Positions 2,081 to 36,861 of a stretch of 52,480 nt of DNA are shown piece by piece. The DNA is from Candidatus Aenigmatarchaeota archaeon (lineage in GTDB: Archaea; Aenigmatarchaeota; Aenigmatarchaeia; CG10238-14; SpSt-28). The notes under the pieces are model-generated. The model was given only the letters and a program-made list of their open reading frames with translations. It was not told where the DNA came from and searched no databases. The stretch is from positions 1 through 52,480 of the forward strand of contig JAVYKI010000005.1 in the NCBI GenBank assembly GCA_038742305.1, in the 5' to 3' direction. The translations under genes were made by a program, and so were the position numbers. How positions within the stretch are numbered: the first letter of the stretch is position 1; every line of letters begins with the position of its first letter.

Positions 2081-2190
2081 TGGGCCGGGCGGGATTTGAA
2101 CCCGCGACCTACGGGTTTCATTTCATCTTTTTTCAAAGCTTTTAGTTTAGACTAAAAGCCCGCCGCTCTACCTAGCTGAGCTACCGGCCC
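2081..2190 (-). tRNA. tRNA-Lys(TTT) with 36-nt intron at 37/38 (intron 2117-2152)
   Basis: Reverse complement folds as GGGCCGG TA GCTC..GAGC G GCGGG CT TTT A [intron] A CCCGT AGGTC GCGGG TTCAAAT CCCGC CCGGCCC A. Confidence 0.95.
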
Positions 2191-31889: not shown

Positions 31890-32024
31890 CCCCGGGTAGC
31901 TCAGTCTGGAAGAGCGCCCGGCTGTAGAACCGCGCTTAATTGCGCGGGGAGCAGCCGCGCTCGGTTTTGCGAGCGGTGAGCTAAAGAAACCGGGAGGTCG
32001 CCGGTTCAAATCCGGCCCCGGGGA
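31890..32024 (+). tRNA. tRNA-Tyr(GTA) with 61-nt structured intron (31928-31988)
   Basis: CCCCGGG...CCCGG CT GTA G [intron] A CCGGG AGGTC GCCGG TTCAAAT CCGGC CCCGGGG A; C1:G72 and A73 identity elements. Confidence 0.95.
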
Positions 32025-36331: not shown

Positions 36332-36765
36332 AAAATTTAATAAAGAAAAACTTTGACTGCGAAATAGATGAAAATTTAGAATTTAGAATTAAAAAAGAAA
36401 AAGTTTTTGTTTTTAAAAAACATTTAATAAATTTTTGGCAAGAATTAAGATCTAAAAATGTTAAAGTTAATCCTTTAGGCATATATTTCGGAAAAATAAA
36501 AAATAATGAAAAAATTCAATTAAGTATAGAAGGAGCTCAAATTGTTGGAAAAAATGCTAAGAAAAACGTATTTGAAATAGATGATTATAAAGAGCTATAC
36601 GAGTTTTTACTAGGAAAGCCTATAGAAATAAAAGAAAATGTAGAAAAGCATAATTTTCCTATATTGAAATATAAGGATTTGCCAATATGTGCAGCTTCTA
36701 GTAGAGAAAATGAAATAATTAGTATATTTCCTAAAGTAGCTAAAAAAATGATTATGAAAGAGTAG
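36328..36765 (+). CDS. NIP7/PUA-like putative RNA-binding protein
   Basis: LGIYFGKI...LSIEGAQIVG...FLLG pattern. Confidence 0.6.
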   Translation: MKNLIKKNFDCEIDENLEFRIKKEKVFVFKKHLINFWQELRSKNVKVNPLGIYFGKIKNNEKIQLSIEGAQIVGKNAKKNVFEIDDYKELYEFLLGKPIEIKENVEKHNFPILKYKDLPICAASSRENEIISIFPKVAKKMIMKE

Positions 36766-36861
36766 CCGGGGTAGTTTAGCGGCAGAACGCCGCGCTCATA
36801 TCGAGCTTTGAAAGATGATAGAGAAACGCGGAGGTCGTGGGTTCAAATCCCACCCCCGGCA
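36765..36861 (+). tRNA. Elongator tRNA-Met(CAT) with 25-nt intron (36801-36825)
   Basis: GCCGGGG TA GTTT..GAAC G CCGCG CT CAT A [intron] A CGCGG AGGTC GTGGG TTCAAAT CCCAC CCCCGGC A; not initiator-type (no A1:U72). Confidence 0.92.

Follow-up and report, generated by a model that had tools for sequence, protein, structure and literature searches.

Candidate single-K-loop guides for wobble methylation in the introns of tRNA-Met and other tRNAs of an Aenigmatarchaeota archaeon

Known guides for the wobble position

To our knowledge, intron-borne methylation guides are textbook matter only for tRNA-Trp, with one further case proposed for tRNA-Met of Nanoarchaeum, and both are full two-motif guides. 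The pre-tRNA-Trp guide, as described for Haloferax volcanii and for Pyrococcus (sR50), resides within the 37/38 intron of the targeted tRNA itself, and its antisense sets C34 against the guide nucleotide that lies fifth upstream of a D-type box. Its guide fold excludes the splicing fold, and its activity is reported to depend on L7Ae, Nop5 and fibrillarin. The intron is approximately 100 nt long and contains complete C, D', C' and D boxes and two guides, for C34 and U39. Randau 2012 (PMC3491384) states that, up to then, such a guide had been known from tRNA-Trp introns alone. The same source describes the 66-nt, C/D-like intron of Nanoarchaeum equitans tRNA-Met, with a box C, a consensus box D and a GC hairpin; it gives rise to a stable RNA, is a proposed methylation guide and is given as the single case in its genome. 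An earlier note on the DNA considered here had mentioned a longer C/D-type Met intron in Nanoarchaeum, and this is the intron that is in print.

Position 34 is also the target of trans-acting box C/D sRNAs. Those described include the Pyrococcus guides for Leu-CAA, Leu-UAA, Met and Trp (Breuer 2021), guides for U34 of Gln in Sulfolobus and Pyrobaculum and for C34 of Trp (Wolff 2020, Lui 2018), Pyrobaculum sR26 and sR27, and a non-intronic guide for Cm34 of Haloferax tRNA-Met (Grosjean 2008). The earlier note had cited the latter as an established trans guide, which agrees with this source, but the name sR-tMet given to it there does not occur in that paper. Human SNORD97/SCARNA97 is described with the same target nucleotide. 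As described, the position-34 sRNAs are encoded by separate genes and have the full bipartite architecture with guides of 10-12 nt.

Guides with one kink motif have been described in two settings. An engineered single-site "hemi" C/D RNP retains activity in vitro but loses site specificity, and both motifs are reported to be needed for such specificity (Hardin and Batey 2006); it is artificial and archaeal. A minimal single-domain snoRNA of Drosophila, as cited by Breuer 2021, is eukaryotic.

The candidate guides considered below can be compared with these systems. Like the pre-tRNA-Trp guide, they lie in the 37/38 intron of the tRNA they would target, follow the same register and occur in a genome that encodes the same three proteins. 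However, the module has one D'/C' box pair and one guide, of 4 bp in the tRNA-Met intron considered here and 6-9 bp in its relatives, within introns of 25-44 nt, and it occurs in eight tRNAs. With the N. equitans intron it shares the tRNA, the intron position, a DPANN host and the proposed function, but it has no terminal C/D pair. With the trans-acting sRNAs it shares the target nucleotide and, largely, the set of tRNAs. Unlike in the hemi RNP and the Drosophila snoRNA, a short hairpin would tether its target in cis, and this hairpin might substitute for the second motif that is absent. A literature search, whose recall is limited and in which "C/D" cannot be searched as a phrase, returned no description of single-K-loop guides in several tRNA introns or in DPANN.

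The tRNA-Met intron and its sister modules

The window is a 52,480-nt stretch, positions 1 to 52,480 of contig JAVYKI010000005.1 of a Candidatus Aenigmatarchaeota archaeon; positions without a contig label refer to it. It contains a tRNA-Met(CAU) gene at 36765..36861 (+), intron included (Rfam RF00005, 61.8 bits). A scripted parse of the anticodon arm, which requires a 5-bp stem, a 7-nt loop and an insert between positions 37 and 38, has a single solution, with the stem CCGCG/CGCGG, the loop C32 U33 C34 A35 U36 A37 ... A38 and a 25-nt intron in the canonical position at 36801..36825. The intron reads UC-GAGC-U-UUGA-AA-GAUGA-UAGAGAA, exactly as transcribed in the earlier note. Judged by its sequence, the tRNA is of the elongator type, because it has the acceptor pair G1-C72 and its anticodon stem is devoid of the three G-C pairs of initiators. 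The CAU anticodon is taken to be read as Met, since a tRNA-Ile(UAU) is encoded in the genome and TiaS has no match in the assembly, which is 91% complete. A search of the assembly for a further tRNA with the CAU anticodon found none. The tRNA-Ile(UAU) gene (C16:4930-5017) contains an intron of 14 nt, and a U34 tRNA probably reads AUA, as in some other small archaea.

All parts of the module are on the + strand. The candidate guide GAGC (36803..36806) is complementary to G31-C32-U33-C34 (36794..36797), with the loop AUAUC between the strands, as the earlier note had it. G36803, the fifth nucleotide upstream of UUGA, faces C34 (36797), which is the proposed methylation site. The guide is followed by a single spacer U (36807), identical in all 30 parsed Met introns, and by the D'-like box UUGA (36808..36811), in place of which relatives have UUGA, CUGA or AUGA. 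The loop AA (36812..36813) separates it from the C'-like box GAUGA (36814..36818), which is also GAUGA in 37 of 44 further loci. This is the shortest spacing seen: counted from UUGA to AUGA, the spacer is 3 nt in this copy and 3-8 nt, with a mode of 6, in 44 other loci. The intron ends with the tail UAGAGAA (36819..36825).

Compared with archaeal box C/D sRNAs, the intron contains the internal succession of D' and C' boxes a few nucleotides apart, with UUGA where the D' consensus is CUGA. The guide is antisense to the anticodon loop of its own host tRNA, as in 37/38-intron guides. On the other hand, there is no terminal box C (RUGAUGA) or box D (CUGA): just UC precedes the guide and no CUGA follows GAUGA. 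Instead of a guide of 10-12 nt there are 4 bp in this copy and 6-9 bp in relatives, and instead of the dual guide for C34 and U39 there is a single one, the tail having no antisense to position 39. The module thus shares location, register rule and proteins with guides of this class, but is set apart from members of the box C/D sRNA family by the missing terminal C/D pair and the short guide.

The module is not confined to this gene. In the genome (592 kb, 22 contigs) ARAGORN finds 41 tRNA genes; 16 have an intron, and each of these parses uniquely with a 37/38 intron. The stem-based parse replaced the intron calls of ARAGORN, which missed the Met gene without the intron mode and misplaced its intron with it, and which named the Met, Lys, Leu-UAA and Glu tRNAs "Ser" and the Gln tRNA "Stop". 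The pattern YUGA-N1-9-AUGA is present in 10 of the 16 introns, and in eight of these ten the stretch upstream pairs with the anticodon loop from position 31 on, always starting two nucleotides before YUGA. The complete module, that is, antisense to 31-3x followed by N-YUGA-N2-6-(G/A)AUGA, thus occurs in eight of 16 introns: Met, Trp, Leu-CAA, Leu-UAA, Lys-UUU, Gln-UUG, Glu-UUC and Arg-UCU.

In the window the sister module is that of tRNA-Lys(UUU) at 2081..2190 (-), with a 36-nt intron at 2117-2152, identified by shared string, parse and pairing. The earlier note had pointed out that the two introns share a string. Indeed, the window contains two matches to AGCTTTGA-N1-8-GATGA, one in the Met intron and one at 2123-2140 (-) in the Lys intron, against an expectation of 0.04, and none of 100 shuffles yields two matches. 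The same note had seen in this pair what looked like a compensatory change from A to G at the fifth nucleotide before the D'-like box and had suggested a portable module; the change tracks U34 versus C34 in all eight modules, and the module extends well beyond the Lys/Met pair. The fifth nucleotide upstream of YUGA forms A:U with position 34 in Gln-UUG (7 anchored bp), Arg-UCU, Lys-UUU and Leu-UAA (9 each) and Glu-UUC (6), and G:C in Trp-CCA, Leu-CAA and Met-CAU (4 each).

The match between guides and tRNAs was assessed by re-assigning the modules to one another's tRNAs, with pairing capped at 7 bp and summed over modules. The sum with own tRNAs is 46, the maximum possible, and is reached by six of 40320 re-assignments. 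These six permute the three C34 modules, any of whose 4-bp guides can stand in for the others; the Met guide fits Trp and Leu-CAA equally well. When the anchor is slid by -4 to +4, the sums fall to 0-7. Thus the five U34 guides co-vary with their own anticodons. That the Met module is more than a chance resemblance is suggested by the family and by the relatives described below; four base pairs taken alone would be weak evidence.

The module is present in all five U34 tRNAs of two-codon NNR boxes (Gln, Lys, Glu, Leu-UAA, Arg-UCU) and in none of the seven U34 tRNAs of four-codon boxes (Thr-UGU, Ser-UGA, Arg-UCG, Val-UAC, Leu-UAG, Gly-UCC, Ala-UGC); Ile-UAU, the remaining one of the 13 U34 tRNAs found, has no module either. 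By hand count this split is one arrangement in 792, a figure that overstates the case, as the modules are paralogous and not independent. Among 14 C34 tRNAs, only Met, Trp and Leu-CAA carry the module. The carriers come close to the set of tRNAs for which guide methylation of the wobble position is known or predicted in other archaea.

Several further observations concern the introns of this genome. The three C34 modules all read CGAGC, in Met (36802-36806), Leu-CAA (C3:2376-2489) and Trp (C1:18552-18647); their sixth guide nucleotide is C, and the pairing ends right after position 34. The corresponding guides of congeners are of 6 bp each, AUGAGC (Met), UUGAGC (Leu-CAA) and UGGAGC (Trp). A parallel change to CGAGC in three separate introns could result from gene conversion or selection. 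The introns of Ser-UGA (C1:92632-92772, 54 nt) and Ser-CGA (C2:27916-28056, 53 nt) have fuller C/D-like box sets, with a box C-like start, CUGA, AUGAUGA and 12-nt spacers, and show no pairing in the position-34 register. The Cys-GCA intron (C3:50879-50979) contains a K-loop-like UGA-AAA-GAUGA without antisense to the anticodon loop, and a similar string is found in a congener (L040). The 61-nt intron of tRNA-Tyr(GUA), at 31890-32024 (+) of the window, is G+C-rich and forms two strong hairpins without boxes; in the unconstrained fold of this arm (-41 kcal/mol) the anticodon stem is disrupted. The initiator tRNA-Met and tRNA-Pro(UGG) are absent among the 41 tRNAs, and may be located in the missing 9% of the assembly or be too disrupted for the programs used.

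Recurrence in related genomes

The earlier note had proposed to look for recurrence in register in other genomes. A set of 61 related genomes, the genome studied here (G000) included, was scanned with the pattern CTCATA...GAGC-T-YTGA...ATGA, which demands only GAGC of the guide. It matched in 28 of the 61 genomes, the reversed control in none. Of the 30 matched places, 29 are in the anticodon arm of tRNA-Met; given the one exception (L005), there are 27 genomes with a real match. These 29 places and one variant from family f5 make up the 30 parsed Met introns; in this anchored parse the fifth guide nucleotide faces C34 in each of them. The guide is 6 bp long in 19 of them, 7 bp in five, 8 bp in three and 9 bp in two, and 4 bp in our genome only. 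Four base pairs, the length given in the earlier note, are not the general design of the family, as 29 of 30 introns have 6-9 bp. The introns of the relatives are 29-44 nt long; the 25-nt intron is the shortest of the 30, and by its guide, its 2 nt between the boxes and its length it is the weakest, extreme member of the family. The guide ((U)AUGAGC in relatives), the single U, xUGA and AUGA are constant, the two boxes being kept in 30 of 30 introns, whereas the hairpin loop, the spacer and the tail vary freely.

A worldwide scan of one genome per species used a stricter pattern demanding ATGAGC, so that guides are of at least 6 bp by construction. It yielded 67 loci, of which 44 pass an automatic tRNA-context test. 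Eleven of the 23 remaining loci were viewed and five of them are tRNA-Met by eye, which brings the confirmed total to 49 of 67, all in named records. Three of the eleven, all from bacterial records, have one identical coding-like context; the other 12 of the 23 loci have bacterial titles. The titles of the 49 confirmed records are mostly Candidatus Aenigmatarchaeota or "uncultured archaeon"; one is titled Nanoarchaeia and one is a 4-kb contig filed in a bacterial bin.

In a search of the phylum the pattern demanded TGAGC, so that our own genome is itself unmatched, and matches were counted by pattern alone. It matched in 77 of 371 genomes, against one for the reversed control. The matches fall in 65 of 117 other genomes of the same order and in 12 of 253 genomes outside it. 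At these places the guide is followed, at a constant distance, by a D'-like box that reads UUGA, AUGA or the canonical CUGA. All these counts overstate the support, since neither kin nor paralogues are independent cases.

Orthologous modules in other tRNAs were sought at 27 intron-bearing tRNA loci of five relatives. Guides with 6-9 anchored bp were found in Trp, Gln and Glu of G003, in Trp and Gln of G010, and in Lys, Gln and Trp of G026. The modules of Lys (G003) and Arg-UCU (G010) were missed by the script and seen by eye. In the Gln intron of G010 the boxes are degenerate (UCGA, GAUGG) and the antisense is kept. In the Lys and Gln introns of G026 (L053 and L055; family f3) the guide is preceded by an additional box C-like (U)GAUGA, and by their sequence it is possible that these introns are intermediate between a full guide and a half guide. 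In five tRNA-Met genes of family f2 (L012, L013, L015, L016, L017) a second insert seems to be present between the D arm and the anticodon stem, beside the 37/38 module intron.

Folding, proposed mechanism and alternative readings

When the anticodon arm is folded together with its intron, the five U34 modules of our genome have a minimum in which the guide hairpin stacks on the anticodon stem, and in three of them (Arg, Lys and Leu-UAA) the hairpin encloses the 5' splice junction. Among the 30 Met arms, the minimum pairs C34 with the fifth guide nucleotide in 22. Only in the arm studied here, out of the 30, is C34 paired with the intron tail in the minimum: G36821-A-G36823 pair with C34-U33-C32 at -11.4 kcal/mol, compared to -6.1 kcal/mol for the guide fold. 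In the same minimum, A36824-A36825 and A38 form a 3-nt bulge with the 3' splice site. Nearly all introns have GAA directly before A38, so that G(-3) can pair with C32 beside such a bulge, which by sequence looks like the expected splicing arrangement in a relaxed form. In the strict bulge-helix-bulge definition, 3-nt bulges hold the splice sites and a 4-bp helix lies between them; in the minimum of the Met arm the 3' bulge is AA|A, the helix has 3 bp (C32-C34:GAG) and the 5' site has no clean 3-nt bulge, making the motif a relaxed one. The guide fold and the splicing fold are mutually exclusive.

The splicing endonuclease is encoded as one open frame of 363 aa with tRNA_int_endo matches of 76 and 25.5 bits; at this locus (C7:7970-8455, +) the two matches to the catalytic domain are adjacent in a single frame. 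Two metatranscriptome runs (approximately 3/100 of each) and one RNA and one DNA contig set yielded two partial reads of 90-95% likeness to the 3' exon, with no joints, a result that bears on neither expression nor splicing.

Fibrillarin (272 bits), Nop5 (153 bits, 323 aa) and L7Ae (105 bits), whose presence the earlier note had proposed to confirm, are all encoded in the genome. There is one canonical 50-nt C/D sRNA with four boxes and guides of 12-13 nt, at C4:63185-63234 (-), the only match of a strict scan; since both this sRNA and the proteins are encoded, the C/D system is in use. The strict scan gave one match against none in the reversed control, whereas a relaxed scan gave five against three and hence is uninformative. 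The assembly contains no target of at least 10 nt for this sRNA; the target RNA itself may be missing from it. The earlier note had named a separate trans guide as the rival of its cis reading; for C34 of tRNA-Met, no other antisense of at least 8 bp in the right register is present in the whole assembly. The two FtsJ matches are more readily accounted for by an RsmB-type and a generic methyltransferase, and for SpoU the match falls below threshold. No Trm7- or TrmL-like route is visible, which is weak evidence in an assembly 91% complete.

We consider it reasonably likely that the Met intron is a cis-acting, single-K-loop derivative of a box C/D guide that sets Nm34 before splicing. L7Ae binding, methylation, cis action and the order of events are inferred from what is observed, namely the sequence, the register, the co-variation of guides and anticodons, the conservation in relatives and the protein genes. 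Of an archaeal box C/D guide, the intron would have retained just the internal D'/C' pair with the guide that belongs to it. In the precursor, the intron GAGC would pair with G31-C34, and UUGA and GAUGA would fold into a K-loop bound by L7Ae. Nop5 and fibrillarin would then dock on the L7Ae-bound K-loop, and fibrillarin would methylate the 2'-OH of the wobble C34, the nucleotide that pairs with the fifth position of the guide counted upstream from D'. After that the arm would refold into the relaxed bulge-helix-bulge, in which C32-C34 pair with GAG near the 3' end of the intron, beside the 3-nt bulge. The splicing endonuclease and a ligase would act last, removing the intron.

By the definitions of the boxes, the K-loop would contain tandem sheared G-A pairs, one U-U and one G-U, with the spacer U opposite the last A of GAUGA, with which it could pair. 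An alternative register might use the second GA of GAUGA, with a 5-nt loop and the pairs U-U, U-A and U-G formed with the following UAG.

The points against the guide reading are the 4-bp guide, the missing terminal C/D pair, the 2-nt gap between the boxes, the splicing-type minimum fold, the loss of site specificity by the single-motif complex in vitro, the Cys(GCA) boxes that lack antisense and the degenerate Gln boxes of G010. Being the weakest member, this copy may work poorly or lean on protein binding.

The boxes may also have a role free of any guide, as the K-loop-like boxes of the Cys(GCA) intron have no antisense. One possibility, which we consider unlikely, is that they form an L7Ae-binding kink while the antisense hairpin just gives the anticodon arm of the precursor its shape or hides it, whether to help folding, to gate the splice site or for protection, with no methylation involved. 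The Cys(GCA) intron and the similar string of its congener are in agreement with this, as are the burial of the 5' splice junction by the hairpin in the Arg, Lys and Leu-UAA modules and the reported lack of site specificity of half-size guides in vitro. However, it leaves unexplained why the pairing starts exactly two nucleotides before xUGA with position 34 at the fifth, why the carriers are tRNAs whose wobble base is guide-methylated in other archaea, and why the U34 tRNAs of four-codon boxes have no module.

Somewhat less probable is that the family is or was functional while the Met module of this genome is a decaying relic, its 25-nt copy being kept merely as a spliceable intron. The 4 bp compared to 6-9 bp in the 29 other Met introns, the shortest intron and box spacing, and the minimum coinciding with the splicing fold are what one would expect of a relic. 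On the other hand, this copy still has intact boxes, an intact spacer U and all four pairs, C34 included, the occurrence of CGAGC in all three C34 modules against 6 bp in congeners looks concerted rather than like random decay, and no other route to Cm34 was found in the 91% complete assembly.

It is very improbable that the excised intron or another precursor guides other tRNA molecules, as argued for Haloferax pre-tRNA-Trp. Reviews do report that the Trp intron guide works in trans or between molecules in vitro, but guides of 4-9 bp beside a hairpin loop of 4-6 nt favour intramolecular pairing, and an excised RNA of 25-36 nt would hardly exceed the K-loop and the guide. Chance resemblance in an A+T-rich intron can practically be dismissed: each of its elements, the four base pairs and the two short boxes, is common by itself, but against it stand the enrichment over shuffles and reversed-pattern controls, the exact register and the conservation across families.

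A stronger form of the cis-guide reading is possible, if tentative. The module may be a natural single-kink C/D enzyme acting strictly in cis on at least eight precursor tRNAs, where the tethered hairpin replaces the second box pair as a ruler and the buried 5' splice junction allows splicing only after release of the complex, a "methylate before you splice" checkpoint.

If the cis-guide reading is true, a very small programmable cis guide would become available for biochemical study, and nature would use a "half" enzyme judged unspecific in vitro. Many DPANN tRNA introns would have a concrete function, and wobble 2'-O-methylation would be tied to the decoding of two-codon boxes in genomes without protein-only enzymes. 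The strictly cis, single-kink form would explain why tiny genomes keep introns in exactly those tRNAs that need a restrained wobble base.
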